Notes: generated by a model not told the origin, from the letters alone. DNA of 64,000 nt from Patescibacteria group bacterium (GCA_038065495.1 JBBTQW010000001.1:44137-108136); one strand, 5' to 3'. Counted from the stretch's first letter, positions 6,459 through 50,045 are shown. Program-made: numbers and translations.

Positions 6459-6486
6459 ATTATAGCAAATGGGTAGAAATTGTCAA
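6459..6486 (-). promoter_or_regulatory. sigma70 consensus promoter module P1 (TTGACA-16-TATAAT, then GGAGGTTGG)
   Basis: Reverse complement reads ttgacaatttctacccatttgcTATAATggaggttgg. It drives the 6089..6385 gene. Confidence 0.6.
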
Positions 6487-6550
6487 GGAGCAAAAAAAGC
6501 CTTATTCTTAGGCCTCTTTTAGATCTCAATTTTCGAGTTTCTAACGGGAT

Positions 6551-7282
6551 TTATGATTCCAATGATTGCCCCAAGAACACTTTCTCCAATATCCCCCGCG
6601 CCAGCAAATCTGCTGGCACACCCTCCACCACCACTTTACCTTTATCCAGCACATAAGCCCTCGTAGCGATGCTCGCGAGCGATTGCAAATTATGCTCCAC
6701 CACCACAATCGCCATCTGCCGCGCTTCGTTAATTTCTTTTATTTTTGCAAAAACTTCTTTGACAATCTTTGGCGCCAAGCCCAAGCTCGGCTCATCTAAG
6801 AGCAAAATTTCTGGCTCGCACATCAAGCCGCGCGCAATTGCGAGCATCTGTTGCTGGCCACCAGAGAGGCTACCAGACTTGGCTTTTAATTTAGTCTTCA
6901 AAGCCGGGAAAAGTTCTAAAACACCAGCTAATCTCTCAGCAATTAACTTTTTATCCTTGACCTGCCAGGCGCCGAGCTCTAGATTCTCCGCCACGGTCAA
7001 GTGCCGGAACACGCGCCGGCCTTGCGGCACGAAGGCGATACCCCGCGCCGTCATCTGGTGTGAGACTGGCTGGATCGCCTGCCCGCGCCAGCGCACTGTG
7101 CCCGTATCGATTGGCGCCAGACCAAAGATCGCCTTGAGCACCGTGCTCTTGCCCGCGCCGTTCGGGCCCATCAGCGCCACAATCTCACCCTCATCAGCCG
7201 TCACGCTGGCACCATCCAGTGCCCGCACGCCGCCATAATGGACGTGAACACCAGCGAGTTGTAACAGAGTTTCGGTAGGCAT
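6551..7282 (-). CDS. livF: branched-chain amino acid ABC transporter ATP-binding protein (LivF-type)
   Basis: 243 aa with Walker A GPNGAGKST, ABC signature LSGGQQQ and Walker B ILLLDEP. Confidence 0.9.
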   Translation of the reverse strand: MPTETLLQLAGVHVHYGGVRALDGASVTADEGEIVALMGPNGAGKSTVLKAIFGLAPIDTGTVRWRGQAIQPVSHQMTARGIAFVPQGRRVFRHLTVAENLELGAWQVKDKKLIAERLAGVLELFPALKTKLKAKSGSLSGGQQQMLAIARGLMCEPEILLLDEPSLGLAPKIVKEVFAKIKEINEARQMAIVVVEHNLQSLASIATRAYVLDKGKVVVEGVPADLLARGILEKVFLGQSLES

Positions 7283-7288
7283 TAGAAA

Positions 7289-8416
7289 CTATTCGTACGG
7301 GACATATTTACCATCACGAGCAACTTTTACGCTAGTTTGATCGTTAATGTCGCCGTTGTTGTCAAAATTGATCTGATACGATAAGCCGGGAAAATCAGAC
7401 AGGTCGTCTAATTGCTTCTTAATACATTCTCCAGAATAAGCGCTGTTCTGACAAGCTTCGCCAACAAACGAGAGAATCTTGATCGCATCGTAGTGACGCA
7501 AAGTGAGATAACTAAGAAAATCCTGACCGTAACTCTTCTGATATTCTTCGGCAAATTTAGCTGAGGTTTTATTAGTAGGAGCAGTCACTAGCAAGCCCTC
7601 GGCGGCAGATCCAGCTGTCGAAAATAACTCCGGAACATCACAGGGTTGCCCGCACATCATTGGCACTTTAATCCCCAACTCTTTGGCTTGTTTTAGGATC
7701 GTGCCAGCCTCACGATAGAGAGTAGCCAAGAAAATGCCATCCGGATTAGCCGCCTTGACCTTGGCCAGTTGCGCCCGATAATCCGACTGACCAGGAGCGG
7801 AACTTTCTTCCGCGACAATAGTGGCTCTATTGGCCGCATACTTCTTGAACGCGGCTAGAGCGCCAGTGCCATAGTCACTATTGAGATAAAGCACTGCGAT
7901 TTTCTTCTTACCAAGCTTATCGATAAGCACATCTGCCGTGAGTTCAGCCTCTTTATCCGCCGTACCCACAATGCGAAAAGCGTAATCATCCGGGGTCGAA
8001 TAAGCTGGAGCAGCTGTCAACGCGAGCATTGGAACTTGGTCTTGGTTAACGATCGGGATCAGAGGCATCGCGGCTGGACTGCCAAACACCACAACCACAT
8101 CCACCTTGTTTAACGTCCGCAGTTTATTGTAAGCACTTAGAGCCACTTTTGAATCATAAGCATTGTCCTCAAAAATCACTTCGACCTTCTTCCCTTCAGC
8201 TAGTAAATCTTTCACCGCCAATTCCACGCCCTGCTTGGCAAATTCCCCAGCACTAGCAATCGGTCCAGTCAGCGGCAAAATCGCGCCAATTTTAATTACC
8301 TTTTCAGTGGTAGGAGTGACTGGTGTTACTGAATCTTTCTTCACCAAACAAGAAATCCCCCAGATCACCAGAGCAATCACAACTATCCAGAGCACGATTT
8401 TTGTGGTTTTGTTCAT
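7289..8416 (-). CDS. ABC transporter substrate-binding protein, LivK/Peripla_BP_6 family, N-terminal TM anchor (paralog 1)
   Basis: 375 aa. A TM helix is followed by IKIGAILPLTGPIASAGEFAKQGVELAVKDL..., the Leu/Ile/Val-binding protein family signature. Confidence 0.85.
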   Translation of the reverse strand: MNKTTKIVLWIVVIALVIWGISCLVKKDSVTPVTPTTEKVIKIGAILPLTGPIASAGEFAKQGVELAVKDLLAEGKKVEVIFEDNAYDSKVALSAYNKLRTLNKVDVVVVFGSPAAMPLIPIVNQDQVPMLALTAAPAYSTPDDYAFRIVGTADKEAELTADVLIDKLGKKKIAVLYLNSDYGTGALAAFKKYAANRATIVAEESSAPGQSDYRAQLAKVKAANPDGIFLATLYREAGTILKQAKELGIKVPMMCGQPCDVPELFSTAGSAAEGLLVTAPTNKTSAKFAEEYQKSYGQDFLSYLTLRHYDAIKILSFVGEACQNSAYSGECIKKQLDDLSDFPGLSYQINFDNNGDINDQTSVKVARDGKYVPYE

Positions 8417-8505
8417 GAGTTTAAATTTGGCTTAAATTTTTAACAGCCAAATTCTAGCAAACTAGCGCCTATTAGCCAAGAGTCGAAGCAGAGTCTCGGT
8501 GGGCA

Positions 8506-9675
8506 TTAGTTATTCATCGGCAGAAATGTCTCCTTTCCGTCTATGACCTGCGTCAAAGCTAGAGCATATGTGGGTTTGTGATCTGAACCAAAAATGATTC
8601 GTCCAGCAACACCATCCCAAGTGGTTGCCCGCTTGAAATAATCTCGTAGACATTCAACCTCTTGATTGCCACAAGATTCGATAGCCGCCTTCAGACGGAA
8701 CGGCATATCGTAAACCAGTGCAATCAAATGGTTGTTAAATGCAATAGGACGACCATATTTCGCTTCGTAATTAGCCAGAAAATTTATTGCTACGGATTTT
8801 TCTCGGTCAAAGAGCCCGCCAAAAGCAAAGTGCTTTGGCGGCAAATAACCACCAGTAACTTCCATGATCTTCTTAGCACTAAAGGCGGCGTTAAAGGCTG
8901 TGGGCCTCTCCACACCCAACTCTTTAAGTTGCTTCACAATAAGGCCCATTGTTTCTGGTCCTTGAGTGCCGATCAAGATTCCATCAAAAGTATGTGTTTT
9001 TAACTTTTGAACGATTGTGCGGAAATCATTTACCCCCGGAGAAAAACTCTCATCAAAAACTACTACTCCCCCAGCAGCCTGAAAAGCGGTCTTAAAATTC
9101 TCAGAGAAATCTACCGCGAATTCTTTCTTCTCGGTGATAACAGCGATACTTTTGATATCTTGACCAAAAACATATTTAGCACCCTCTTGGGCATAATAGC
9201 TACTGGGCACAGAGTTACGAAAAACCCATTCCCCTTCATTGGGAATGTTCGATACTGACGTAAGATTGGCAAGGACCAAAACTTTGTCTACAGATGATTG
9301 TGGAGCGATTGTCATCGTCTCGGTCGAGCAATGACCACCCAAAATAACACTGACCTTATCGCTGTTAACCAGTTTTTGCCAGGCATTAATAGCCGACTTA
9401 CCGTCACATTTCCCATCTTCGACAATCATCTCAAATGACCGGCCCAGTACTCCACCACTGCTGTTAATTTCCTCGACCGCCAGAAGAATTGCATTCCTAG
9501 CATCCTCACCATAAATTGCCGCCGTCCCCGATAGTGGCGCAATCACCCCAATCTTAATCGGCTCGGCAGAAATAGCCGGAGCTGGGGCTGGCTCTGTTTT
9601 GCCGCTTTTGCTAACCCAAACCCCCAAGCCAATAACTACTAAAATAACCACAATCCAGCCGATGATTTTGTTCAT
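8506..9675 (-). CDS. ABC transporter substrate-binding protein, LivK/Peripla_BP_6 family (paralog 2)
   Basis: 389 aa with IKIGVIAPLSGTAAIYGEDARNAILLAVEEINSSGGVLGR. Confidence 0.85.
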   Translation of the reverse strand: MNKIIGWIVVILVVIGLGVWVSKSGKTEPAPAPAISAEPIKIGVIAPLSGTAAIYGEDARNAILLAVEEINSSGGVLGRSFEMIVEDGKCDGKSAINAWQKLVNSDKVSVILGGHCSTETMTIAPQSSVDKVLVLANLTSVSNIPNEGEWVFRNSVPSSYYAQEGAKYVFGQDIKSIAVITEKKEFAVDFSENFKTAFQAAGGVVVFDESFSPGVNDFRTIVQKLKTHTFDGILIGTQGPETMGLIVKQLKELGVERPTAFNAAFSAKKIMEVTGGYLPPKHFAFGGLFDREKSVAINFLANYEAKYGRPIAFNNHLIALVYDMPFRLKAAIESCGNQEVECLRDYFKRATTWDGVAGRIIFGSDHKPTYALALTQVIDGKETFLPMNN

Positions 9676-9722
9676 ATTTTATTTGTTAATTTCTAATTTA
9701 TCAAAATCCTAGCACAAGCTGA

Positions 9723-10472
9723 TTATTCTCCCAAATACGCCTCCACTACCTCTCGCTGCGCCAGCACCGCACTTGGCTCGCCCTCGGCGAGCAACTGACC
9801 GGAATCCAGCACAATCACGCGATCCGAAAGTTGCCGAATCAGCTCCATATTATGCTCGATCAAGATCACGACTTTATTTTGCTGTTTTAAATCTTGCAAC
9901 ACATTCGTCACAATTTTGATCATCTCGGGGAAAAGTCCGGCAAATGGTTCGTCGAAAAGAAAGATTTGAATCGGGAAAGTCTGCGCCATCGCGAGCACGC
10001 GCGCGATTTCCAACAATTTTCTCTGTCCGTACGAGAGATTAATCGCCAGTTCGCCATGTTTGCTCCACAAATTTACTTTTTCTAAAACCTCGCGCGCTCG
10101 AGCTAAGTGCAGATTGTTATGCTTTTCAAATAGTGCGCTAAAAACTGGTCTGTCTGTTAGGACTACCAAAATATTATCCAGCACACTCATTTGTTCAAAA
10201 AGTCGCACATCCTGAAAAGTCCGGGTAATCCCGTAACTCGGCACTTGCGCTATCTCTACTTTCTTTAACTTCGTCCGTTCCAGAACTACAATTTCCCCAC
10301 CATCTAGCGGCAAAACGCCGGTAAGCAAATTCACCAGCGTACTCTTGCCCGAGCCGTTGGGTCCAATGATGCTGGTAATCTGCCCGGCGGCAAACTGGAG
10401 CGACAAGTGATCCACCGCGTGCACGGCATCAAACTTCTTTACTAGATTGTGAGTGGAGAGGATGGGAGGCAT
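9723..10472 (-). CDS. livG: branched-chain amino acid ABC transporter ATP-binding protein (LivG-type)
   Basis: 249 aa with GPNGSGKST, LSYGQRKLLEIAR and FLFDEP. It shares a start/stop junction with the upstream SBP gene. Confidence 0.9.
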   Translation of the reverse strand: MPPILSTHNLVKKFDAVHAVDHLSLQFAAGQITSIIGPNGSGKSTLVNLLTGVLPLDGGEIVVLERTKLKKVEIAQVPSYGITRTFQDVRLFEQMSVLDNILVVLTDRPVFSALFEKHNNLHLARAREVLEKVNLWSKHGELAINLSYGQRKLLEIARVLAMAQTFPIQIFLFDEPFAGLFPEMIKIVTNVLQDLKQQNKVVILIEHNMELIRQLSDRVIVLDSGQLLAEGEPSAVLAQREVVEAYLGE

Positions 10473-11599
10473 TATGGTTGGGTATAAAGAACCGCTTTCC
10501 CATTAACGATTTGCTTGACGGTTGGCAGAAGACCAATTGCGTCGCCATTTTCATCGAAACCATAAGTCCCCATTACCCCTTTAAAATCCTTGAGGCTGTG
10601 CAAATAGTCTTTTAGTTTCGAGTTATCCAAACCAACATTATCAATAGCCTGCTTTATCATATAAACAGAATCGTATGTAACAGCGTCAGCAAACTTGATT
10701 GTTGGTGCACGACCATAAAGCGACTCAAATTTATGGAAAAGTTCACTTTTTATTTGATTGTTACCAACATTAGGATCAGCAAAGAAAATCATTCCTTCTG
10801 CTTCGGATATTTCAATGACTTCTTCTAATTCACCAAAATAATTACCGTAAATTGGACCTTTATATCCCAATTGCCGCAATTGTCTTAACGCAGAGATTCC
10901 CCCAAGTGGTGCATTTGGATTCATAACCACTGTTTCTGGTTTTTTGGAAATTACATCAAGGACATAACCCCTAAAATCGGTAGTACCTGGAGGGTAATTT
11001 TCTTCAATGACTTCTCCTTGAAAATATTTTTTAAATGCCTTAAGTAAACCGACTGTAAAATCACTCGTTTCTGTTATGACTGCTACTTTCCCATACTTTT
11101 TATTAATCGTCTCCGCCATAACTCTACCAGTATCATCATCAGAGTAAGAATTACGGAAAATAAATTCTCCAGCACCAGTTAAATCAGGATGCGTAGCCCA
11201 CATCGACATCATCAAAACTTGATTCCTCTCGGCCACCGGTGCTACCGCCAAGGCTTCTTGACCACAAATCACCAACAGAATCTTCACCTTGTTTACCGTA
11301 ATCAATTTTTGCGCCGCAGAGAGTGCATCCTTGGGACCACATTTACCATCCTCGTAAATGATTTCTAAAGCCTGACCATTAACACCTCCGGAAGTGTTTA
11401 TTTCCTCGCGAGCGATTTCCACAACATCCCTCATTTCTTCCCCCCAAGCTGCAGCAAAACCAGACAACGGGCCGATAAAACCAATCTTCACAGTCTCACC
11501 ATTTTTTTCTCCAGAATTCTCACTTTTGCTCGCATAAACAGCGATAAAAATTAGCGCGAGAAGTACGAATAACCAGATTATTTTGTTTTGGGCTTGCAT
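10472..11599 (-). CDS. ABC transporter substrate-binding protein, LivK/Peripla_BP_6 family (paralog 3)
   Basis: 375 aa with VKIGFIGPLSGFAAAWGEEMRDVVEIAREEINTSGGVNGQ. Confidence 0.85.
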   Translation of the reverse strand: MQAQNKIIWLFVLLALIFIAVYASKSENSGEKNGETVKIGFIGPLSGFAAAWGEEMRDVVEIAREEINTSGGVNGQALEIIYEDGKCGPKDALSAAQKLITVNKVKILLVICGQEALAVAPVAERNQVLMMSMWATHPDLTGAGEFIFRNSYSDDDTGRVMAETINKKYGKVAVITETSDFTVGLLKAFKKYFQGEVIEENYPPGTTDFRGYVLDVISKKPETVVMNPNAPLGGISALRQLRQLGYKGPIYGNYFGELEEVIEISEAEGMIFFADPNVGNNQIKSELFHKFESLYGRAPTIKFADAVTYDSVYMIKQAIDNVGLDNSKLKDYLHSLKDFKGVMGTYGFDENGDAIGLLPTVKQIVNGKAVLYTQP

Positions 11600-19593: not shown

Positions 19594-19669
19594 AAAGAAC
19601 TGCGGCCACGTTTAATATAGCACAAAACTATTCTGCCAAGCCAGAGTTATCCACAGTGGATTTTTAAGC

Positions 19670-19706
19670 AAAAAAAAATGCCCCCGAACAACAGCTGTTC
19701 GGGGGC
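19670..19706 (-). terminator. Rho-independent terminator (GCCCCCGAACA...TGTTCGGGGGC plus T9 on minus strand)
   Basis: Plus strand reads aaaaaaaaatGCCCCCGAACAacagcTGTTCGGGGGC. It ends the transcript started at promoter P2. Confidence 0.65.
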
Positions 19707-19876
19707 AGAAGGGATCATGTTTTGGCATCTGTTATCTTTGGGCCATCCTAGGGACAGCTTGCAGAGCGTGTCAGGCTCAATGATGCTCAACGATTGAATC
19801 CTTTCAATGGTTGGTCTCTACATTGTTTAGTGGCCGGCCACACAGTGTGGCCGGGTCGCTGCGCCGCCGAGGTTGA

Positions 19877-19990
19877 TCAGCTGCTGGCGTCGTCGCCGTC
19901 GTGCATCGTGATGTCGTGAGAACTCTGATAACAATTACGATGGGTGTTGACCGTGGCGAAATTGCCACCATAGTGATTCCGGACGAGCAT
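19877..19990 (-). CDS. candidate 37-aa peptide (MLVRNHYGGNFATVNTHRNCYQSSHDITMHDGDDASS) on a promoter-to-terminator transcript of about 400 nt; could instead be a non-coding sRNA
   Basis: ATG at 19990 is preceded by AAAGGAGCCTCAA (strong SD, 7-nt spacer). Promoter P2 lies upstream and the terminator at 19670-19706 downstream. The longer track ORF 19877..20080 would need a GTG start without an SD. Confidence 0.35.
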   Translation of the reverse strand: MLVRNHYGGNFATVNTHRNCYQSSHDITMHDGDDASS

Positions 19991-20089
19991 TTGAGGCTCC
20001 TTTGGTCCAAAACGTGGACCGGTAGAAAGAACTTGTCCCCTGTGACTGCGTGTGTCTCTCAAGACAACTCCTCCAATCACTCTACCCCC

Positions 20090-24906: not shown

Positions 24907-26143
24907 AGCCTAAATATTTTGCTAAAGCCTCTGGCAACTTAATGCTGCCGTCAGCTTGTTGATAATTCTCGATCAGTGAGACCAAAATTCTTGGCGTCGG
25001 TATAGCCGTGCTATTGAGCGAGTGCGCATATTTTAACTTCCCATCTTCTCCATCGCGATAACGGATATTCAATCTTCTCGTCTGGAAATCATGGAAATAA
25101 GAAGCCGAACTAATCTCGCGATATTTGCCCTCCAGTGGCACCCACAGTTCAATGTCATATTTCTTCACCTGACCCAAACCAAGATCGCCACCGCAGTTCA
25201 CCACCGTGCGATACGGAATGCCGAGCAACTCAATAAATTCTTCCGTATTTCTATTCAGCGCCTCATGCTCTTGCACGGATAAATTGTGATCGGCGGCGCA
25301 GAGCGTGACTTGTTCTAGTTTGTAAAATTCATGAACTCTAATCAAGCCTTTCACATCACGGCTGTGGCTGCCCGCTTCTCTGCGAAAGCACGGCGAGAAG
25401 GCTAAATATTTTACCGGCAAATCAGCTAGTTCTAAAATCTCATCTCCATGCAAGCCCATCGTGGCCACTTCGGCAGTTCCCGCAAGATAATCTGCATCTT
25501 GCGTTTTATACAAGTCCTCTTCGCTCTGCGGCAAAAAGCCCGTGCCCAGCAAATTCTCACGCTTCACCAGCGACGGTACAATAATTGGCGTAAAACCTTT
25601 CTGACTAAAGAAGTCCAGCGCCATTCGCCAGATCGCCATAGAGAGCGTGACGCCAGCGTTCTTGAGAACATAACCTCGGAAACCCGCTACTTTCGTGCCA
25701 CGTTCTAGATCAAGCAAGTTTAATTTAGTCATCAGCTCAATGTGATCTTTGGGAGTAAAATCAAACTTTGGCTTCTCGCCCCAAGTTTTGATCTCCTGAT
25801 TGTCAGCATCGCTCTCACCGTCCGGCACAGAAATATCCGGAATATTCGGCACTTGCAACATCAGCTTCTGCCAGCTTGTCATCAATTCTCGCAGCGCTTC
25901 TTCGCCAGTTTTGAACTTCACTTTCAACTCTTTTAATTTTTCCAAAAGTTCTGGGGTTTTATTTCTGGCCAATTCTTCGCCCAGTTTATTCTGTTCAGAT
26001 CTAAGCGCTTGCACTTCTTGCATCAGTTTTAACCGCTCGTCATCTATTTTCAGTAAATCTTCAACGTTAAAATCCACACGCTTCTTCTTAGCCGCGGCAC
26101 GCACCAGATCAGCATTTTCCCGAATAAACTTGATGTCTAGCAT
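24881..26143 (-). CDS. serS: seryl-tRNA synthetase
   Basis: Start at MLDIKFIRENADLV (the ORF extends 11 codons upstream). An N-terminal coiled coil is followed by class II motifs (FRREAGSHSRDVKGLIRVHEF..., GGDLG...). Confidence 0.9.
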   Translation of the reverse strand: MLDIKFIRENADLVRAAAKKKRVDFNVEDLLKIDDERLKLMQEVQALRSEQNKLGEELARNKTPELLEKLKELKVKFKTGEEALRELMTSWQKLMLQVPNIPDISVPDGESDADNQEIKTWGEKPKFDFTPKDHIELMTKLNLLDLERGTKVAGFRGYVLKNAGVTLSMAIWRMALDFFSQKGFTPIIVPSLVKRENLLGTGFLPQSEEDLYKTQDADYLAGTAEVATMGLHGDEILELADLPVKYLAFSPCFRREAGSHSRDVKGLIRVHEFYKLEQVTLCAADHNLSVQEHEALNRNTEEFIELLGIPYRTVVNCGGDLGLGQVKKYDIELWVPLEGKYREISSASYFHDFQTRRLNIRYRDGEDGKLKYAHSLNSTAIPTPRILVSLIENYQQADGSIKLPEALAKYLGYAVIGPTV

Positions 26144-26221
26144 GTTAAATAAAATTATAACAAAAAAACGCCTCATCTCACAATCAAGTGGGACAAGGCG
26201 TGGCGGACGACAAAACAGAAC

Positions 26222-26545
26222 TTAATCGAATTTGGACTTTAGTGCCTTCTTCAATCGTTCGAAATCTCCATTACTCAAGGGATTGCCCTCACTTTGTTCC
26301 GGGCAATTGTACAAGCGAAGCACGAAAGCATCGGCTTGCGATTTGACCAAATCGAGCTCAGCAATCAACTTTCTAGTCAAAACCTTGAGACGACTCGCAG
26401 TACCAACTCCCATGTTTGGCTTATCAGCCCGACCAAAGCGAAAACGGAAACGAGCTTCCACACTCGGATCTTCAGAAATTATTACCCGAATCACATTAGC
26501 TCGAGCAATTTCAATTTCCGTTAGTTCAGCAAACTCTCGAATCAT
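26222..26545 (-). CDS. hypothetical protein (107 aa)
   Basis: ORF with a plausible context upstream of serS. No recognisable domain. Confidence 0.45.
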   Translation of the reverse strand: MIREFAELTEIEIARANVIRVIISEDPSVEARFRFRFGRADKPNMGVGTASRLKVLTRKLIAELDLVKSQADAFVLRLYNCPEQSEGNPLSNGDFERLKKALKSKFD

Positions 26546-26600
26546 ATGATCCTCCCATGTTTAGAGACCAAGTCCATTCTAATGCTACAATATTCCGCAC

Positions 26601-27467
26601 ATGAGCACAATCAAGCGCTTATCCCCAAGCCAGTTTCCGTCACTTCTGCGCGAAATTAATGACCCGCCGAAAGAGCTATATTTAGAAGGCAAATTGCCGG
26701 ACGCCAGTTTTATTTATCTCACGATCGTTGGCTCGCGCAAATATTCTAGTTACGGCCGAGAAGCTTGTGAGAAAGTTATTGCCGAACTAGCTGGCTATCC
26801 CGTCGCGATTATTTCTGGCTTGGCGGTGGGAATAGACACGATTGCGCATCAAGCAGCACTCCAAGCTGGCTTGCCCACCGTGGCGATCCCGGGTTCGGGC
26901 TTGGGCCGGAATGTGCTCCATCCCAGTTCTAATAAAAAACTCGCTGATGAAATCATAGAAGCCGGTGGCGCGCTCTTGAGTGAATTCCCGCCCGATTATC
27001 CAGCTGGCTTACACACTTTCCCACGCCGAAATAGAATCATGGCTGGCCTCGCGAAAGCTGTGCTGATAGTAGAAGCCGGCGACAAAAGTGGCACGCTGAT
27101 CACAGCGAAATTAGCAACAGATTATAATCGCGACGTCCTCGCCATCCCGGGCTCAATCTTCTCAGCCGGCTCGCTGGGCACGAATAATTTGATCAAGCTT
27201 GGCGCGACGCCGGTTTGCTCGGGTCGTGATTTGCTGATTGGTTTGGGTTTTGACTTACCTGACGAATATGGCCAGCAGAAATTAAATTTAGAGAGTTTAA
27301 CTAAATCAGAACAGAAAGTTTATGAAATCCTAAAGATCGAACCCCTCCCGCGCGACGAATTGATCCGGAATCTCAATCTGCCAATTAGTGAAGCAAATGT
27401 GCTACTAGCGATGATGGAAATTAAGGGAATTATCAAAGAGATGATGGGAGAATTACGGGTGGGGTGA
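26601..27467 (+). CDS. dprA: DNA processing protein DprA (Smf)
   Basis: 288 aa with the Rossmann-like DprA core (VGSRKYSSYGREA..., GLAVGIDTIAHQAALQAG..., GSLITAKLA). Confidence 0.85.
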   Translation: MSTIKRLSPSQFPSLLREINDPPKELYLEGKLPDASFIYLTIVGSRKYSSYGREACEKVIAELAGYPVAIISGLAVGIDTIAHQAALQAGLPTVAIPGSGLGRNVLHPSSNKKLADEIIEAGGALLSEFPPDYPAGLHTFPRRNRIMAGLAKAVLIVEAGDKSGTLITAKLATDYNRDVLAIPGSIFSAGSLGTNNLIKLGATPVCSGRDLLIGLGFDLPDEYGQQKLNLESLTKSEQKVYEILKIEPLPRDELIRNLNLPISEANVLLAMMEIKGIIKEMMGELRVG

Positions 27468-27472
27468 GAAAT

Positions 27473-27506
27473 AAAAAAACCCCGCACCATTTCTGGTTTG
27501 GGGTCT
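27473..27506 (-). terminator. Rho-independent terminator for gene 27539..27838 (hairpin plus T-run on minus strand)
   Basis: Plus strand reads aaaaaaACCCCGCACCatttctGGTTTGGGGT. Confidence 0.5.
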
Positions 27507-27538
27507 TACGAACAGTTCTTGAAGACCAGGGTCGTCTC

Positions 27539-27838
27539 CTAAGCTGGCCAATCCCTGCTGTATGGAGTGGTCATGATCCGCATTGTCTCCCGAGGATCTC
27601 TGGAGAGAATGTGATGACAGGACCGATCATCCAAGAAACCAAACTTGTGGTAGTCTCCCAAGACCATTTGGTCAACCTCGGAGTAGAATGCAAGCGCGCT
27701 GGCGGCAACTTTTTTCAGAACATGTTCGATTCTTGTGCCATCGGGCAGATCGAGCACCTGCATTCTGGGGAAATCGTCCTCCTTAGTAACAACGCCATCA
27801 CCGATGTAAAGGGGGCGATAAACCAATTTAACCTTCAT
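27539..27838 (-). CDS. small hypothetical protein A (99 aa) expressed from consensus promoter P3
   Basis: Strong SD (GGAAGGAGAAAATCC-ATG), promoter P3 upstream and a terminator downstream. The antisense track ORF 27464..27904 is rejected. Confidence 0.6.
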   Translation of the reverse strand: MKVKLVYRPLYIGDGVVTKEDDFPRMQVLDLPDGTRIEHVLKKVAASALAFYSEVDQMVLGDYHKFGFLDDRSCHHILSRDPRETMRIMTTPYSRDWPA

Positions 27839-27917
27839 GGATTTTCTCCTTCCGGCCTTTTGGGGCCAAAAATAAGGTTATTTCTTGTCAAAGTGCTACG
27901 ATAGCACCTCAACCCCC

Positions 27918-27946
27918 AGTATAGCAAATTGCGGTTTATTTGTCAA
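27918..27946 (-). promoter_or_regulatory. sigma70 consensus promoter module P3 (TTGACA-17-TATACT, then GGGGGTTGAGG)
   Basis: Reverse complement reads ttgacaaataaaccgcaatttgcTATACTgggggttgagg. Confidence 0.65.
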
Positions 27947-27966
27947 GTATTATAACTCACCCCCAG

Positions 27967-27993
27967 CCCCCTCTCTTAATTTAAGAGAGGGGG
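27967..27993. promoter_or_regulatory. 27-bp perfect palindrome (CCCCCTCTCTTAA-T-TTAAGAGAGGGGG) between divergent promoters; candidate operator
   Basis: Self-complementary 13+1+13 nt, centred between the -35 of P3 (minus) and a plus-strand TTGACA-16-TAAACT element at 28009-28036. No T-run on either side, so unlikely to be a terminator. Confidence 0.5.
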
Positions 27994-28042
27994 CGAGATG
28001 TTAGAAATTTGACAAAAAAGTAGCTCATGCTAAACTTTCCCA

Positions 28043-28256
28043 AGTTCACACCAGCTGGTAGTCCCTTGACCCCGACGCGTCCGCCGATAACCGCAAGCTT
28101 GGTTTCGGCGTCCGAGGCGACCCGTAGCGTTCGGGAGCCGGCCACGAAAAGTGGTTGGCTCGAGCCCGAGAAAATATCGGATACGTCGGGAAGCATTTTG
28201 GGGATTTCCGTGAACACAGTTTGCATTGGTACTCACTGATGCAAACTGTTTTTTTA
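28043..28256 (+). ncRNA. candidate structured small RNA or topA leader (about 210 nt, GC-rich) ending in a canonical terminator
   Basis: A plus-strand promoter-like TTGACA-16-TAAACT lies at 28009-28036. The GC-rich segment has several hairpins (CCGA...TCGG, GGCCAC-GAAAA-GTGGTT) and ends with ACAGTTTGCAT...ATGCAAACTGT plus T7 at 28215-28256. The overlapping track ORFs are low-complexity and lack an RBS. Confidence 0.35.
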
Positions 28257-28314
28257 TTTCTCACAAATTTGCAACTTGTTAACAATCTGTGCTACTAATG
28301 TAACTTAAGATGAT

Positions 28315-28391
28315 CCCGTTAGAAGTAACTCTTTCTACTTTCGTAACGGAAAAACAAAATTAAAAATTAATATTCTTAAACTTCTAACGGG
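28315..28391 (+). promoter_or_regulatory. 12-bp perfect inverted repeat (CCCGTTAGAAGT ... ACTTCTAACGGG) in the topA 5' leader; the right arm abuts the ATG
   Basis: Left arm 28315-28326, right arm 28380-28391, with the topA ATG at 28392. Could sequester the translation initiation region. Confidence 0.4.
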
Positions 28392-30578
28392 ATGAAATTA
28401 CTGATTGTCGAGTCGCCGGCGAAAGCGAAAACGATTGCCAAATATCTGGATGGCGAGTACACCGTGCGCGCGAGCGTCGGGCATATTCGTGATCTGCCGA
28501 AGAGTAATAAAAACGCGATTGATATCGAGGCCGGCTTCGTGCCGAATTATGTGATTAGTCCAGGGAAAGAAAAAGTGGTGAGTGAATTGAAAAGCTTGGC
28601 CAAGAAGGCTGAGAAAACGGTGCTCGCGACAGATCCGGACCGTGAAGGTGAAGCAATCGCTTGGCACATTAAGGAAGCACTGGGCTTGAAGAATCCGGAC
28701 AGAATCGTGTTCCATGAGATTACGAAAGAAGCCGTGCAAGAAGCGGCCGAACATCCAAGAAAAATTGATGAAAATTTAAGATCAGCGCAAGAGGCGCGAC
28801 GCGTGCTCGACAGACTATTTGGTTATGACTTGTCTGGTTTGATCTGGCAGAAGTTGCGCTACGGTTTATCAGCTGGCCGCGTGCAGTCCCCCGCGCTAAG
28901 AATCTTGGTGGAACGCGAACGCGAGATTAAAGCGTTTATTCCGGAAAAATTCTGGGTGCTGGAAGCGCTGTTGGCTACTAAAGAAAAAAAAGAAATCTTG
29001 TTTACTTGCGTAGAAGAGCCGAAGACGCAAGAAAGCGCTGACGAGATTGTGAATCTAGCGAAAAAATCAGACTGGCAAGTGGCGAGCGTCAAACAAACGC
29101 CAACGAAACGCTCGCCGCGCGCACCGTTTACGACATCAACGCTCCAGCAAGCGGCTTCTTCTCGTCTCGGCTACTCACCGTCTATCACAATGCGACTGGC
29201 GCAGAAGCTGTATGAAGCCGGTCACATCACTTACATGCGCACGGACAGCACTAATCTATCCCAACAAGCGCTGGCTGAAATTGCTGGTTTGGTGGAAACA
29301 CAATTTGGTCAGAAATATTTGCAAGTCAGAAAGTATGCGACTAAATCGAAGAACGCGCAGGAAGCGCATGAGGCGATCCGGCCATCTCACGCAAGTAATC
29401 TGAATGCTGGCAATTCGCCGCAAGAGCAGAAACTTTACAAATTAATCTGGTCACGCGCGGTGGCGAGTCAGATGAAAGACGCTGAGATGCTGAAAACAGA
29501 AATTATTGCGCAAGCTCGCCCCGCCAATGGCGGGGCAGGTGAGAAAAAAGTTCCTGATTTTAAAACTTTGGGATCAGTCATCACTTTCGACGGCTGGCTC
29601 AAAGCTGACCCGGCCGCGCGCGGCGAAGACGTGGAATTGCCAAAAATTTCTGACGGCGAAAAGCTTGATCTCAAAAATATCAACGCGCTTGGTAAAGAAA
29701 CGCAACCGCCGAAGAGATATAGTGAAGCTGGCCTCGTGAAAGAATTGGAAAAGCGCGGGATTGGCCGACCGAGCACTTATGCGCCCACCATCAAGACGAT
29801 TATTGATCGCGGTTATGTGGAAAAGGTGGAACGCAGTCTCAAGCCGACAGAAACGGGCGAAGTGGTGAGTAGCTTTTTGGAAGAAAATTTTGCCAGCTAT
29901 ATCAGCGACGACTTCACTCGCGAGATGGAAGATAAGCTGGACTTGATCGCGACTGGCGAACATGAGTATGTGAAGACGCTGAAAGATTTCTACGGCCCCT
30001 TCAAGAAAGAAATCGCGTCGAAGAAAAAATTGCCGAAAATTACTAATCTTGGGGCTGCGCCGGCTGATCTGCTCTGCCCGGTCTGTGGTAGCGCAATGAT
30101 TATCAAACTCAGTCGCTCTGGCAAATTTTATTCTTGTTCACGATTCCCAGACTGCGTGGGAGCGCGCAAGATGGACGGGAATGTGATGGAAGGGCCGAAA
30201 GAAACGGGCGAGCTCTGCCCAGACTGCAAAGACGGCAAATTGATCGAGCGCGAAGGTAAATTTGGTAAGTTTATTGCTTGCAGTAATTATCCGAAGTGCA
30301 AATTTATCAAAAAAGATCCAAGCCAAGAAGCAGCCGGCGATACTGGCGTAACTTGCACAGTTTGTAAGAAAGGCACGATGCGCGAGAAGCGCGGGAGATT
30401 TGGCATATTCTATGGTTGCTCAAATTATCCGGACTGCAAAAATATTATTAAAACCAAACCAACTGGCAAGATCTGCGAGATGTGTGGCGCGCTAATGATG
30501 GCGGGGACGAAAACGATTCCGGACAGATGCTCGAACAAAGCCTGCGCCAATCACAATCCGCACAAGCTGATGAAATAA
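28392..30578 (+). CDS. topA: DNA topoisomerase I with C-terminal zinc-ribbon repeats
   Basis: 728 aa with MKLLIVESPAKAKTIAKYLDGEYTVRASVGHIRDLP (Toprim), active-site Tyr region (HITYMRTDS) and three C4 zinc ribbons near the C-terminus. Confidence 0.95.
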   Translation: MKLLIVESPAKAKTIAKYLDGEYTVRASVGHIRDLPKSNKNAIDIEAGFVPNYVISPGKEKVVSELKSLAKKAEKTVLATDPDREGEAIAWHIKEALGLKNPDRIVFHEITKEAVQEAAEHPRKIDENLRSAQEARRVLDRLFGYDLSGLIWQKLRYGLSAGRVQSPALRILVEREREIKAFIPEKFWVLEALLATKEKKEILFTCVEEPKTQESADEIVNLAKKSDWQVASVKQTPTKRSPRAPFTTSTLQQAASSRLGYSPSITMRLAQKLYEAGHITYMRTDSTNLSQQALAEIAGLVETQFGQKYLQVRKYATKSKNAQEAHEAIRPSHASNLNAGNSPQEQKLYKLIWSRAVASQMKDAEMLKTEIIAQARPANGGAGEKKVPDFKTLGSVITFDGWLKADPAARGEDVELPKISDGEKLDLKNINALGKETQPPKRYSEAGLVKELEKRGIGRPSTYAPTIKTIIDRGYVEKVERSLKPTETGEVVSSFLEENFASYISDDFTREMEDKLDLIATGEHEYVKTLKDFYGPFKKEIASKKKLPKITNLGAAPADLLCPVCGSAMIIKLSRSGKFYSCSRFPDCVGARKMDGNVMEGPKETGELCPDCKDGKLIEREGKFGKFIACSNYPKCKFIKKDPSQEAAGDTGVTCTVCKKGTMREKRGRFGIFYGCSNYPDCKNIIKTKPTGKICEMCGALMMAGTKTIPDRCSNKACANHNPHKLMK

Positions 30579-31147: not shown

Positions 31148-31252
31148 GTTTTTAAAGCTTAACAAATAAAGTGCAATATGCTAGGCTGGGATGTCAGATC
31201 GTTGAAAAGCAAATAAACCCCGTTTTTTGGCCCTAGGTCAAAAGGAGATTGT

Positions 31253-41383: not shown

Positions 41384-41974
41384 TTAACTATTTTGCATAA
41401 TATACCATACTTTTTCCCAATTTACAACGTTCCAAAACGCGTCCACGTAATCCGCTCTTTTGTTCTGATACTTGAGATAATAAGCGTGTTCCCACACATC
41501 CAAGCCAAGCAAAATCTTGGCACCACTCGGCAAATCCTGATTCGCGCTTGTTTCAATCTTTAATCTTCCCGCCTCATCAACAATCAACCAGACCCAACCA
41601 GAACCAAACCGACTCAAAGCCGCGTCTTTAAATAATTTTTTAAAATTCTCCAAACTTTCGAAATTCTCATTTATTTTTGCCAGCAATTCCGAATAATTGG
41701 TAATTTGCGTTTGAGTATTTTCTGCCGGTATTAGAATTTCCCAGAAAAAACTGTGATTCCAGTGGCCACCAGCATTATTTTTCACTACCGGATTTTCACT
41801 GGCACACAGTTCCAACAAACTTTTCTGGGCCAACTCCGGATTTTTCTCTAGCTCACCGTTTAGCTTATCAATATAAGCCTGATGATGCTTAGTGTGATGA
41901 ATCCGCATCGTCGCCTCATCAATCCACGGCTCTAATGTGTTGTATTCGTAATTTAGTTTGGGTAGTGTGTACAT
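41384..41974 (-). CDS. sodA: Fe/Mn superoxide dismutase
   Basis: Start at [25 protein letters not shown] and [18 protein letters not shown] are classic SOD motifs. Confidence 0.9.
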
Positions 41975-42067
41975 ATCCAGATTATAATAAAAAAACGACC
42001 TCATGTCAGCAACCAGGCTGATGTGAGGTCGTTATAATATTTCGTACAGTCCTGATGGGTCTGCACG

Positions 42068-42418
42068 CTACTTCTTCTCCTTTGGTCGGACACTTGGCTC
42101 AAAAGACCGGAGGAATGCCAGAGCCGCTTTCTTGATGATAATTTTTCCACCCTGCATCGGTGGAAGAATTGGCATCCAACAATTTCCCATTGCATCATAC
42201 GGACGATAACCGAGTCTAAACCCTATTGATTCCTTGAAAGGAACCCGGACATGGGCCGTGAGGAAACCAGGACACCCTTTCTCGGCGAAACAATGTATAT
42301 CACCCTCATCACGCGGTCTGAATTTCTCTGGATCCATCGCATGTTTGAGCCATCTAATCTTCCGGAGATTGAGCAGATCTTCCCTTTCGCTGACCGCTTC
42401 ACTTGGCTTTTTTGCCAT
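42068..42418 (-). CDS. small basic hypothetical protein B (116 aa) expressed from consensus promoter P4
   Basis: Promoter P4 upstream, Cys/His-containing (HCFAEKGCPGF), no recognisable family. Confidence 0.5.
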   Translation of the reverse strand: MAKKPSEAVSEREDLLNLRKIRWLKHAMDPEKFRPRDEGDIHCFAEKGCPGFLTAHVRVPFKESIGFRLGYRPYDAMGNCWMPILPPMQGGKIIIKKAALAFLRSFEPSVRPKEKK

Positions 42419-42493
42419 CTGAGCTCTCGCTTTCTTTGCAATGTACTTCTAGCATAATCTGGCTAGAATTCAGCTGCTGGTAATACCAGCTCA

Positions 42494-42522
42494 ACTCTCA
42501 CTATAGCAAATACTGGAGACTT
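42494..42522 (-). promoter_or_regulatory. sigma70 consensus promoter module P4 (TTGACA-17-TATAGT, then GAGAGTTGAGC)
   Basis: Reverse complement reads ttgacaagtctccagtatttgcTATAGTgagagttgagc. Confidence 0.6.
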
Positions 42523-42523
42523 G

Positions 42524-43597
42524 TCAAGTCACAGAAGGATCGAGCTGTTTGTTTAATTTCTTCACACTGTTTAATTTTTTCAAAATATCCGGCAAAACTC
42601 GCAAAACGTAATCTAAATCACTCTTTTTCGTTTCCGGACTCAAACTAAATCTGACTGCACTCGAATCTGTCTTAATTAGATCATGTGTCTGCAAACTGCA
42701 AGCCGCGCCAGTAGAACAAGCAATGCCTTTGGCATCCAGTTCCAGGACAATCTGCTCGCCCAGCAAACCAGCGAAGCTCACGCTCACATTATTCGCCAAC
42801 CTAACTTCTTTTTTATTTTCAGTTATTTCTGGTCCGTTTAATTTTACATTTTTTAACTTTAATAATTTAACAATAAAATAATCGCGAAGTTTGCTCACTT
42901 TCTGATTATTCATTTCTCTATTTTTCTGTGCTAATTCTAACGCTCGCGCAAATTTAATTATCCCTGCCACATTTTCTGTCCCCGAACGCAATCCCCGCTC
43001 TTGTCCGCCACCAAGCAAAACTGGTAATATTTTTATCCCACGCCGCACAAACAAACAACCTACGCCAGCCACGCCAATTTTTGCGCCGTTCAAAGTCAGC
43101 AAATCCACGCCAAGCTTCTGCACATTGAGATCTAAATATTTCGCCGCCTGGCAAGCGTCGGTGTGCAGATACGGTGTTCTAGATTTATTTGCTAATCTAA
43201 ATTTTCTAATTACTTTCGCTACTTCTCTAATATTATTTATCACGCCAATCTCGTTGTGTGCATAAATAACAGAAACGAGATCTGTTTGTTTTTTTAAATT
43301 ATTTTTTAATTCAGAAATATTAGAAATAAAACTAGCGTTAAACTTTTTTGCTGGTTCTAAGACAGATGCATGCTCTAAATCTGTTGTGATTAAGTGTCTA
43401 GGTTTAAGACCAAAAATCGCGAGATTGTTAGATTCTGTGCCGCCAGAGGTAAAAATAATTTCATCTGGTTGCGCGTGTAATATTTCTGCTACTTTTCGGC
43501 GCGCTTGATCTAACTTTCTCGCAGCTAGAATTCCCTCTTGATGTAAACTTGAGGGATTGTCTTGCCCGGCGGCGGAGTCAAGATAAATTTGCTTCAT
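42524..43597 (-). CDS. cysteine desulfurase (class V aminotransferase, NifS/IscS/SufS-like)
   Basis: 357 aa with a PLP-lysine region and the catalytic Cys region GIACSTGAACS. Confidence 0.85.
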   Translation of the reverse strand: MKQIYLDSAAGQDNPSSLHQEGILAARKLDQARRKVAEILHAQPDEIIFTSGGTESNNLAIFGLKPRHLITTDLEHASVLEPAKKFNASFISNISELKNNLKKQTDLVSVIYAHNEIGVINNIREVAKVIRKFRLANKSRTPYLHTDACQAAKYLDLNVQKLGVDLLTLNGAKIGVAGVGCLFVRRGIKILPVLLGGGQERGLRSGTENVAGIIKFARALELAQKNREMNNQKVSKLRDYFIVKLLKLKNVKLNGPEITENKKEVRLANNVSVSFAGLLGEQIVLELDAKGIACSTGAACSLQTHDLIKTDSSAVRFSLSPETKKSDLDYVLRVLPDILKKLNSVKKLNKQLDPSVT

Positions 43598-46062: not shown

Positions 46063-46067
46063 CCTCT

Positions 46068-46150: not shown

Positions 46151-46175
46151 CTGTGTTATGATTTAAAAAAATTAA

Positions 46176-46298: not shown

Positions 46299-46305
46299 AA
46301 CCAGA

Positions 46306-46554: not shown

Positions 46555-46653
46555 TAGTTTTATTTTTTATTTTATTTTTCTATTAATAATCTCGATCACT
46601 CTTACCCTGTGCCGTTAAAGCACCAGAAACATTACAGTTATTCCTGCTATTTC

Positions 46654-47208: not shown

Positions 47209-47402
47209 CTAGACGTTGAAATTTCCAAAACATTACAGTCACCCATTCTATCCAATCCATCCAATCCATTGTCATTAGCTATTACCAGCCGACAAGCGTA
47301 AGATCAGAGTAAGACTGGCGCAAACGTTCTTAGAGCTATTGACTTTTGTGCTGTAATATTCCGGTAATCAAAGCTCCTCCAACGCGTCTTAAACTAGATA
47401 AC

Positions 47403-47930: not shown

Positions 47931-47953
47931 ACTCCTGCTACAATAAATCCGCC

Positions 47954-48040
47954 AGCCGAGGTGGCGAAATGGCAGACGCATCAGCTTTAGGAGCTGACGG
48001 GGGCAACCCCATGGAGGTTCAAGTCCTCTCCTCGGCACCA
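47954..48040 (+). tRNA. tRNA-Leu (anticodon TAG), CCA encoded
   Basis: Acceptor GCCGAGG/CCTCGGC, anticodon stem TCAGC/GCTGA with loop TTTAGGA, long variable arm, T-loop TTCAAGT and ACCA. Confidence 0.85.
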
Positions 48041-48047
48041 GTATAAC

Positions 48048-48611: not shown

Positions 48612-48650
48612 AGAGTATTTCCAGGCCTAAAAATAAGGCTTTTTTACCCC

Positions 48651-48680
48651 TTGACAAGAATGGGCCTATGGGTGTATAAT
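48651..48680 (+). promoter_or_regulatory. sigma70 consensus promoter module P5 (TTGACA-18-TATAAT, then GGGGGTTGG)
   Basis: ttgacaagaatgggcctatgggtgTATAATgggggttgg lies about 95 nt upstream of the SPFH gene. Confidence 0.65.
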
Positions 48681-48773
48681 GGGGGTTGGTTGAGTAAGGG
48701 GCTCGTGTGAGCTTCTGAAAATAGGAAACGGACAGTTGTTTGTAAACTGAATATAGAAGAAGGAGAATGTGTT

Positions 48774-49955
48774 ATGGCAGAGGTAAACTATCGCTCAACA
48801 GAAAACTTGGGGTGGTATCGCTCCGTTGTGGTACTTTTGTACATCACCTTTGTGGCAGTCGGTATTGCACTTTGGTGCTTCCCGATCGAAATCGTAAAGG
48901 GAAAGCCATTTGGACTTGATGTAACGTTCGGGTTCTTAGTCGTTTGTTACACCCTGGCTAGCTTACGGCAAGTTGGTGAAGATGAGCACGCGGCCAAAAC
49001 ATTTTTTGGTCGACCAATGCAGAACGTAGACTCTGGTCTAACGTTCGTACCGCTCTTTATCTGCAGACTGGTACGCTTCTCTACCAATCTCCAGACACTC
49101 GTTATCGGTTCTCCACGAGAACATCCAACGGAAAGGGACTCAGATGGTAAGATAAAAACATTTGACTTTGTCCCATCTCGAGGAACTCTGGTCAGTGAGG
49201 AGCCACTACGCATTACCACAGCAAGCTATACTGCTGCTGAGTGGAAAGTAGACGGGAATCCACTGTCAGAGGACGATGTTAAGAAAAGATTCCCAAGAGA
49301 AGACGCTTTAGCTGGCCGAAGTACCATTGACCCACAGATCATTGTCACATTTATCGTGCTTGACGCATGTAAATTTGTGAAGGCAGTTGGCTCAAAAATC
49401 GAATTGGCCGTTGCGCCAATTGCCCAAGCGGCACGTGGGACACTCCAGGCCTTTTGTGGTAAAAGAGATTTGTCGTTTATCATCCACCAACTTGAGGACG
49501 AAGCACAGAAACAACTGCTCCGCGACCTTGAGATACTGGTTGGTGACCCGGATTCTCTTGACCCAAATTCCAAGAAAGAACCTTTACACTGGGGTGTAGA
49601 CATCCGTGGTGTACGCATTAGTGACATCGGATTATCCTACAAGGTGAACAATGCCTTGTCGGAAGCCAGAGCGGCTGGAGCCAGAAAAGAGACGACGATC
49701 ACCGATGCCGAAGCTAACAAGAAAAAGTTCGAGCTTGAGGGCGAAGGTGCTGCGAAAGCTGCTTTCTTACTCCTACAAGCTCAGGCGCGAGGTTCTGCCA
49801 AGATGGCCAAGATAATGAAAACGGACGAAGGCAAACTTGCCGCCCAGCTACAAGCGATGAAAGAAGCGCTGAGCAAGGGCGACAACAAGCTCTTCATGGT
49901 CGGAGGAAAATTCCACGATCTGATGGAAATCCTGGCCAGCGCGCTTGGAAAGTGA
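48774..49955 (+). CDS. SPFH/Band-7 (stomatin/flotillin/HflKC-like) domain membrane protein
   Basis: 393 aa. An N-terminal TM hairpin is followed by a Band-7-like core, then an Ala/Lys/Glu-rich coiled coil (EANKKKFELEGEGAAKAAFLLLQAQARG) typical of flotillin-like proteins. SD GAAGGAGAA. Confidence 0.7.
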   Translation: MAEVNYRSTENLGWYRSVVVLLYITFVAVGIALWCFPIEIVKGKPFGLDVTFGFLVVCYTLASLRQVGEDEHAAKTFFGRPMQNVDSGLTFVPLFICRLVRFSTNLQTLVIGSPREHPTERDSDGKIKTFDFVPSRGTLVSEEPLRITTASYTAAEWKVDGNPLSEDDVKKRFPREDALAGRSTIDPQIIVTFIVLDACKFVKAVGSKIELAVAPIAQAARGTLQAFCGKRDLSFIIHQLEDEAQKQLLRDLEILVGDPDSLDPNSKKEPLHWGVDIRGVRISDIGLSYKVNNALSEARAAGARKETTITDAEANKKKFELEGEGAAKAAFLLLQAQARGSAKMAKIMKTDEGKLAAQLQAMKEALSKGDNKLFMVGGKFHDLMEILASALGK

Positions 49956-50017
49956 GAATGATGATTTAGGCTAAGACAAGGCCGTTTGCAGTATTCTGCA
50001 GGCGGCCTTTTTTATAC

Positions 50018-50045
50018 TTGACAAATCCTATGTACTTGCTATAAT
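50018..50045 (+). promoter_or_regulatory. sigma70 consensus promoter module P6 (TTGACA-16-TATAAT, then GGGGGTAGTGG)
   Basis: ttgacaaatcctatgtacttgcTATAATgggggtagtgg is near-identical to P2 over about 40 nt. Confidence 0.65.

Follow-up and report, generated by a model that had tools for sequence, protein, structure and literature searches.

Putative mobile promoters are similar upstream regions that stand before non-homologous genes, within or across genomes and with no obvious transposon; the published rule requires an alignment of no fewer than 50 nt with an identity of 80% or higher, and flanking coding sequences that do not align (Matus-Garcia, Nijveen & van Passel 2012, PMC3488235). We describe here six promoter-like sites, P1 to P6, that come closest to this concept and that lie in a 64,000-nucleotide stretch (hereafter the window; GC content 47%) of the genome of an uncultured, ultra-small Patescibacteria group bacterium (GCA_038065495.1, JBBTQW010000001.1:44137-108136). 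Our favored explanation, to which we assign a probability of roughly 0.6, is that the sites belong to a lineage-expanded family of homologous promoter-leader cassettes with a maximal-consensus sigma-A promoter, which spread by duplication and recombination and serve as a platform for orphan genes. The family differs from the putative mobile promoters in that the unit is resolved into an exchangeable upstream element, core and leader, in that the genes behind the cassettes (the cargo) are replaced behind a fixed cassette at syntenic loci, and in that a specific G-rich discriminator defines it. Promoter reuse and promoters with G-rich discriminators are themselves already known; the new aspect is a promoter-leader cassette family in the Patescibacteria, or candidate phyla radiation (CPR). 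To our knowledge almost nothing is known about transcription signals in this group, and in the literature on Saccharibacteria promoters and start sites we found nothing relevant.

Other described systems resemble parts of the cassette. In the rRNA-type (stringent) promoters of Escherichia coli, hexamers close to the consensus are set 16 nt apart, the discriminator is G+C-rich and an A/T tract lies upstream. Stem-loops at the 5' terminus stabilize mRNAs in Gram-positive bacteria, as in the aprE and ermC leaders, and phage morons carry their own promoter and terminator around a small gene. The GGGA downstream element, or discriminator, is read by sigma region 1.2 in Thermus aquaticus (Feklistov 2006 and Haugen 2006, as cited in PMC3526302); placed at -6/-3 after the -10, GGGA changed affinity approximately 150-fold for Thermus RNA polymerase and approximately 7-fold for that of E. 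coli (PMC3526302).

A regular-expression scan of both strands of the window for TTGAC[AT]-N15-19-TA[TC]ANT yielded exactly six matches, which are P1 to P6. All six continue with G[GA]G[GA]GT[TA]G, for which the chance expectation is about 1/8192 per site. A two-block position-weight matrix built from the six sites, used with a cut-off of 22 bits, scores them at 36-46 bits. The core promoters are listed below, with the hexamer span running from the start of the -35 to the end of the -10.

6450..6487, minus strand: P1 core promoter, C-TTGACAA, 16-nt spacer tttctacccaTTTGC, TATAAT, GGAGGT, TGG; 42.7 bits; hexamer span 6486-6459
6494..6515, minus strand: P1 upstream element AGGCCTAAGAATAAGGCTTTTT, terminator-like with a T-tract, shared with P5
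20082..20118, minus strand: P2 core promoter, 16-nt spacer aatcctgtgggCTTGC, TATACT, GGGGGT, AG; 45 bits; hexamer span 20117-20090
27910..27947, minus strand: P3 core promoter, 17-nt spacer aataaaccgcaaTTTGC, TATACT, GGGGGT, TG; 46.3 bits; hexamer span 27946-27918
42492..42528, minus strand: P4 core promoter, 16-nt spacer, TATAGT, GAGAGT, TG; 40.7 bits; hexamer span 42527-42500
48623..48688, plus strand: P5 upstream element and core promoter, 18-nt spacer, no TG, TATAAT, GGGGGT, TG; 36.5 bits; hexamer span 48651-48680
50017..50053, plus strand: P6 core promoter, 16-nt spacer aatcctatgtaCTTGC, TATAAT, GGGGGT, AG; 44 bits; hexamer span 50018-50045

The original prediction had placed six promoter-like sites on these strands, and reading the sequence at each confirmed all of them; only P4, given as 42494-42522, was about 5 nt off. 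The spacers of P1 to P6 measure 16, 16, 17, 16, 18 and 16 nt, and the hexamers match TTGACA/TATAAT at 12/12 positions in three sites and at 11/12 in the other three. Every promoter is non-coding and faces an open reading frame (ORF) with a Shine-Dalgarno site 50-90 nt downstream. The -35 hexamer of P4 contains the stop codon of the upstream gene, and the P6 core stands directly 3' of the P5 terminator. In the six-way alignment the invariant columns are C-TTGACAA, G-TATA-T-G and G-T-G. The cassette as originally drawn was somewhat too uniform: the GGGGGT run is exact in four copies (P1 has GGAGGT, P4 GAGAGT), a spacer ending in tgc does not hold for P5 (gtg, with an 18-nt spacer and no canonical TG-extended -10), and the final A/G of the consensus after the G-run is T in P6.

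On the basis of hexamers, spacing and position, we regard the six as predicted sigma-70/sigma-A housekeeping-type promoters. An alternative sigma factor was considered and is unlikely, because both hexamers are the canonical housekeeping consensus. The G-run occupies the position, directly after the -10, of the Thermus GGGA element, and sigma region 1.2 of this organism is by analogy a candidate for its recognition. Both elements have a non-template G run at -6 to -4 (GGG in four of the six sites, GGA in P1 and GAG in P4) together with a TG-extended -10. They differ in sequence: the run here reads GGGGGT, in which -3 is occupied by G in 6/6 sites where GGGA has A, and an invariant T and a G at +2 come after it; moreover, GGGA permits -35-independent initiation, whereas the run here always accompanies a perfect -35. 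We also considered whether the run might be a Shine-Dalgarno site or part of a mini-ORF, as GGAGGT or GGGGGT could pair with the anti-Shine-Dalgarno. This role was rejected: located upstream of the start site, just after the -10, the run would not be transcribed. Reiterative transcription, by slippage on the G-run, was considered as a further possibility.

The six sites form a discrete, dispersed promoter family, and the statistical case for this is solid. We read 81 kb of the focal genome, comprising the window and 17 kb of flanks on the same contig (CAYHIU010000001.1, assembly GCA_964356885.1), and in this sequence the interval from 22 to 36 bits is empty; matrix scans of 20 shuffles gave no matches. 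(The coordinate offset between the window and CAYHIU010000001.1 differs by 102 nt between two anchor genes, which may reflect a small indel or a sister assembly.) Most of the approximately 20 other promoter-like sites in the window consist of an extended -10 (TGnTAnAAT) that lacks a -35 and is followed by an A/T-rich discriminator; this class includes the sites before the SOD gene, the LOOT RNA and the nine tRNA genes. Among 27 non-coding extended -10 sites, a G-rich discriminator accompanies 5/9 with a good -35 and 0/18 without one (Fisher p=0.0016). Promoters with a -35 and no G-run do occur, at 28009-28036 (plus), 59718-59689 (minus) and 35296-35268 (minus) and twice in the flanks, all with weaker boxes. 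Because the tRNA and other extended -10 promoters have A/T-rich discriminators, the G-run is not generic in this genome: the tRNA, LOOT RNA and other promoters here lack a GGGGGTWG-like extension. The six are more alike than promoter function by itself would demand; they share spacers, an upstream element and leaders, and their similarity reaches beyond the -35 and -10.

The LOOT RNA is itself full-length (54915-55035, plus; RF03000, 89 bits against a gathering score of 46) and has an extended -10 promoter, TGATAGAAT, at 54879-54887, outside the G-run family. Promoter reuse in this genome extends beyond the six sites, because two further pairs of regulatory blocks are duplicated in the window. 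One block, made up of a terminator and TGCTATAAT/TGCTACTGT, occurs at 59184-59226 and 62991-63033 (88% identical, no G-run), near tandem paralogs of periplasmic binding proteins, and the promoters at 31159-31187 (plus) and 35296-35268 (minus) have the spacer AATAAAGTGYARTATGCTA in common, likewise with no G-run. Four tandem Peripla_BP_6 paralogs at 60798-63889 (minus) have near-identical 31-nt start regions and further paralogs lie at 7289-11599; liv-type binding proteins are therefore strongly amplified in this small genome.

Within the window, the copies share sequence at positions whose bases polymerase does not read specifically, and they share it in mosaic combinations of spacer, upstream element and 5' leader. 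P2 and P6 are identical at 34/38 positions (89%, slightly above the 85% originally estimated), spacer included, with AATCCTRTG in common. P1 and P5 share a 22-nt upstream element, AGGCCTAARAATAAGGCTTTTT, at 96% identity; it has these two matches and none in shuffles, and it also precedes the modules in three comparison loci, L030, L034 and L040. (L-numbers denote comparison loci or contigs, most of which were found by searching for the motif.) P3 and P6 have in common the leader GGTGCT..GCACTTTGACAA.AAATAACC.

The original prediction had called for related genomes to be checked for the module, and the cassettes are present in Saccharibacteria genomes and in groundwater contigs. A strict pattern occurs at 25 loci in 185,579 species genomes: 10 loci are in Saccharibacteria (nine genomes), 3 in other CPR, and the rest are scattered over Clostridia, Anaerolineae and others. 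With a clade-specific pattern, 19 metagenome loci were retrieved; one 0.1-um-filtered Hainich groundwater sample supplied 9 of these, which share the same GC content and the same spacer sub-types. The genomes closest in motif sharing are labeled Candidatus Saccharibacteria. At least 3 assemblies or metagenomes contribute to the 8 copies of the P1-type spacer TCTACCCATTTGC, which recurs in L013, L015 (two copies), L030, L039 and L044. The Saccharibacteria genome CAYWPU carries three copies with this spacer, two of them inside a ribosomal-protein gene cluster and before unrelated small proteins. These two units lie at L015 66-759, before rpsS, and at 4292-4998, between rplE and rpsN; the cargo protein of the second contains an exact 39-aa tandem duplication. 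At L015 position 833 a decayed copy has retained the spacer and lost the -10 and the G-run.

Comparison of loci shows that the parts of the cassette, and the genes behind it, have been exchanged. The Hainich contig L048 is syntenic to 25878-29701 of the window at 81-90% nucleotide identity, and its promoter and leader are 97% identical to those of P3 from -36 to +33, yet an unrelated 70-aa ORF stands in place of the 99-aa ORF of P3. L037 is orthologous to a focal locus just outside the window (L028, a 205-aa gene next to ftsZ). Here the -35 and the leader are kept, the spacer/-10/discriminator block has been swapped, so that L037 has TGCTATAATGGGGG where the focal genome has TGCTAGGCTaagaa, and the cargo is replaced. 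At both syntenic loci, then, the leader is kept and the ORF replaced, while the core is kept at L048 and swapped at L037. L044 combines the P1 cargo (86% amino acid identity) and a P1-type core with a P3-type leader. L030 has the upstream element, core and leader of P1 (69 nt at 90%) in front of unrelated cargo and between unrelated flanks. Pairs that reach 50 nt at 80% identity are P1-L030, P1-L044, P3-L048, L030-L034, L030-L044 and L037-L040, all of them across contigs. The suggestion of a mobile promoter unit gains comparative support from the presence of the same cassettes before unrelated genes and from the mosaic exchange of core and leader; no transposon-like ends were found, and within the window no pair attains this threshold.

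These comparisons bear directly on a first alternative, that independent promoters were each selected toward the optimum of the lineage's RNA polymerase with no copying between loci. Several observations are what such convergence predicts: every invariant column of the six-way alignment lies in a known polymerase-contact block, spacers differ among sub-families, the combination -35/TGCTATAAT/GGGGGT has scattered occurrences in Clostridia, Anaerolineae, Akkermansia, Bdellovibrionales and marine phages, and distant homologs of the P1 cargo have promoters with a full -35 and an extended -10 and no G-run. Convergence does not explain the likeness at non-contact positions, seen in the spacers (P2 and P6; TCTACCCA in 8 copies) and in the upstream CTAAGAATAAG element, nor the 60-nt leaders common to unrelated genes, nor a decayed copy that retains the spacer and not the functional boxes. 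Gradual convergence should also have yielded promoters of intermediate strength, and there are none. Taken together, the likeness outside the contact positions, the decayed copy and the mosaicism by blocks at orthologous loci make pure convergence improbable.

The -35/TGCTATAAT/GGGGGT module was also seen in other CPR phyla (Sungbacteria, Harrisonbacteria and other Saccharibacteria), at L006 76-109, L008 5077-5110, L010 7360-7394 and L026 435-468. In these loci it is followed by an approximately 40-nt hairpin and a U-run, which may represent tiny RNAs or attenuators and had no Rfam match; L006 and L008 have GGGGGTACTAAAC[G/A]TG in common. In L033, L035, L038, L042 and L043, from gut and other metagenomes with GC contents of 0.43-0.57, the module precedes an approximately 100-nt conserved stretch, aggaaaagggcgctgcgacaagcggtta, which may be an unannotated RNA; the three loci scanned (L033, L035 and L043) had no Rfam match.

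The transcription units that the six promoters head are simple in layout. A terminator or gene end lies immediately upstream of each promoter; leaders of 50-90 nt follow, then one small ORF (two in the P6 unit), and a terminator at the unit's end was identified in four of the six (P1, P2, P4 and P5). The predicted leaders and cargo are as follows.

6386..6452, minus strand: P1 leader ("type A"), 5'-proximal hairpin followed by GACCTTGAAAAC; fold z=-2.7
6089..6385, minus strand: P1 cargo, a 98-aa lipoprotein-like protein; terminator at 6034-6059
19668..20083, minus strand: predicted P2 transcript of ~415 nt, fold z=-2.8; terminator at 19679-19707
19879-19992, minus strand: putative 37-aa ORF of P2, with a Shine-Dalgarno site
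27839..27911, minus strand: P3 leader ("type B"), hairpin GGTGCTA..TAGCAC, then TTTGACAAGAAATAACC and a second hairpin before the Shine-Dalgarno site; z=-2.3
27539..27838, minus strand: P3 cargo, a 99-aa orphan ORF
42068..42493, minus strand: P4 leader with 5' hairpin GCTGGTA..TACCAGC and, within the same span, P4 cargo, a 116-aa orphan ORF; 17-bp terminator, 41994-42033
from 48687, plus strand: P5 leader, hairpin at +11
48774-49955, plus strand: P5 cargo, a 393-aa SPFH/Band-7 protein; terminator at 49978-50009
50055-90, plus strand: P6 type-B leader
50109-50303, plus strand: first P6 cargo, a 64-aa transmembrane ORF
50300-51061, plus strand: second P6 cargo, a 253-aa membrane protein, overlapping the 64-aa ORF

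Of the window's leaders, five have a stable hairpin that begins at +2 to +11 (z -2.2 to -2.7), and 11/19 leaders of the whole family fold with z < -1. The type-B leader is common to P3, P6, L044, L048 and L034. Covariation is limited to single compensatory changes among few distinct sequences: the leader of L030 is that of P1, save that a T-A pair of the stem has become A-T, a compensatory change, and P3 and P6 differ in a comparable way. No leader from the window or the related loci matched Rfam. RNase J is encoded on the focal contig (L029 1704-3332), and because the leader hairpins are stable and this enzyme is encoded, a role for the 5' hairpin as an mRNA stabilizer is plausible. What the cassettes share with known 5'-terminal stabilizers is a stable hairpin close to the predicted 5' end (within the first 2-11 nt) and a host that encodes RNase J. 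They differ from them in that the hairpin is absent from approximately 40% of leaders and in that conservation of the type-B leader extends to its sequence in addition to its structure.

The cargo consists largely of orphans. Apart from SPFH, no cargo of the window belongs to a Pfam family, and neither does any cargo of the related loci; the cargo proteins of both are mutually non-homologous except for the orthologous pair P1/L044. The P3 product has no relative in 5.8 billion clusters, and the 1.84 billion representatives searched include no relative of the P4 product. For the P1 product there are 13 homologs and a match to the phage family phrog_902 (E=7e-12). The original prediction that each copy drives a lineage-specific gene holds for the most part, as with P3 and P4; the product of P1 is a member of a small family that also matches a phage protein family. 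The P2 product is either a candidate peptide or a candidate small RNA; its transcript matches no Rfam family and no similar DNA was found in any fetched locus. A protein search with the SPFH protein gave only two weak homologs, and metagenome contigs held no relatives of its gene; for one of the two homologs a contig was fetched, and it contains no upstream promoter region. What had been called an SPFH operon is a single-gene unit with its own terminator.

Because a strong terminator follows the 116-aa ORF and the SOD gene has a TATAAT of its own behind it, P4 does not read into SOD-HtrA-ClpB. The SOD gene is apparently leaderless, with TATAAT at 41986-41981 six bases before the ATG at 41974 (minus); a start at 42004, which would give a longer SOD ORF, falls within the P4 terminator and is probably not the right one.

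We propose that each cassette is a unit of approximately 110-130 nt that comprises promoter and leader and belongs to one homologous family. At about -40 to -47 a T-tract, which is often where the preceding terminator ends, would act like an UP element. It would be followed by the -35 element C-TTGACAA, by a 16-18-nt spacer whose terminal TTTGC would provide the TG of an extended -10, and by the -10 itself, TATAMT. The G-rich discriminator GGGGGT at -6 to -1 may contact sigma region 1.2, and W at +1 with G at +2 may fit the core-recognition-element pocket. The transcript would usually begin with a stable 5'-proximal hairpin, followed by CYTTGAMAA, and the hairpin may protect the mRNA from 5'-end-dependent decay by RNase J. 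With a terminator on either side, each cassette and the small ORF behind it would form a self-contained unit. The copies are probably related by descent, having been duplicated and then recombined or gene-converted among loci in a Patescibacteria clade, and recombination between related genomes would exchange the ORF behind a conserved cassette. Selection would keep the cassettes near the polymerase optimum, and orphan genes with a fast turnover would thereby have in the cassette a portable platform for strong expression.

Several points weigh against this proposal. The best pair within the window is 38 nt at 89%, so that none there attains 50 nt at 80% identity, and much of the within-window similarity could be due to selection on polymerase contact positions. 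The 17 kb of flanks contain no further full member, only weaker -35 promoters with no G-run. Most of the comparative cores were ascertained by motif search, and independent evidence comes from the spacers, leaders, flanks and cargo; in addition, the Hainich contigs are short and unbinned, which makes loci of one genome indistinguishable from loci of different strains. In 8/19 leaders of the family there is no 5' hairpin above background. Finally, near-consensus promoters in E. coli show escape-limited behavior, and "strong" is not automatic.

A second alternative, that the cassette is a regulon signature, is compatible with a cassette family rather than exclusive of it. Small proteins, often membrane-associated or secreted, would be co-regulated by a factor that reads the spacer or leader, or through global control exerted on the G+C-rich discriminator and the 16-nt spacer, as at stringent, supercoiling-sensitive or initiating-NTP-sensing promoters. 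The class is discrete, with -35 and G-run tightly coupled, and four of the six copies combine a sub-optimal 16-nt spacer with a G-rich discriminator, a combination typical of E. coli rRNA-type promoters. A CAAAT-N7/8-ATTTG dyad in several copies, and a leader motif, CACTTTGACAA, that is conserved in sequence and not in structure alone, would also suit a regulon. Against these stand the failure to identify a regulator and a cargo with no common function or family. The spacers differ between sub-families, which makes a single operator unlikely. The likeness to rRNA-type promoters extends to near-consensus hexamers and the upstream A/T tract; however, the cassettes drive small orphan proteins rather than rRNA, tRNA or ribosomal proteins, and the tRNA promoters of the window, which would be classic stringent targets, lack the module. 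Moreover, the G residues of the cassette belong to the non-template strand; in that strand, G at -6 to -4 should stabilize open complexes rather than destabilize them (PMC3526302). We consider the regulon reading doubtful, to the same degree as convergence.

A bolder version of the proposed cassette family, which we offer as speculation and rate slightly below either of these alternatives, would make the cassette a recombination "socket". A naturally competent, genome-reduced CPR clade would capture, swap and strongly express orphans by homologous exchange, one arm being the conserved cassette and the other a housekeeping neighbor, much as an integron does and with no integrase. The reader of GGGGGT-W-G might then be some trait of the polymerase peculiar to the clade, or a dedicated factor under which all the orphans are co-regulated, for example on host contact.

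That the units are remnants of mobile elements or phages (the outward ends of a miniature inverted-repeat transposable element or insertion sequence, or morons left by a prophage) is very improbable: a promoter and terminator around a small gene between unrelated genes do recall an autonomous moron, the P1 cargo has its phage-family match and the CAYWPU units sit inside a ribosomal-protein gene cluster, but the units share neither target duplications nor inverted repeats at their ends, the neighboring genes are housekeeping ones and include no integrase, no transposase and no structural gene of a phage, there is no prophage context, the clade-specific pattern has 0 matches in 2.9 million viral contigs, and 5/6 cargo proteins have no phage match. 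Transposon ends were sought directly, and no consistent inverted or direct repeats surround the units; the only flanking inverted repeats, 14 nt at P3 and 19 nt at P4, are at chance level and differ from each other. A phage origin was likewise rejected. The strict pattern does occur in nine viral contigs, seven of which (L050-L054, L056 and L057, from IMG/VR, with GC contents of 0.35-0.40) form one unrelated low-GC phage group and carry an identical promoter, TTGACAATCTAGCAGCATAATGCTATACTGGGGGTAACAATTAGTTGCCCC; phages of an unrelated group therefore have promoters of the consensus-plus-G-run design as well.

If the family is as we propose, its oddity is that the most consensus-like promoters of a reduced genome stand on its least conserved genes, which are swapped behind a conserved cassette. 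It would be an unusually clear case of natural promoter reuse, in which upstream element, core, leader and cargo recombine between loci and strains. It would also point to small orphan proteins that take up most of the transcription in an ultra-reduced episymbiont, and would make the orphan cargo candidates for surface, host-interaction or phage-interaction functions. For genetic work in CPR, the cassette would provide a defined and probably very strong native promoter and leader.

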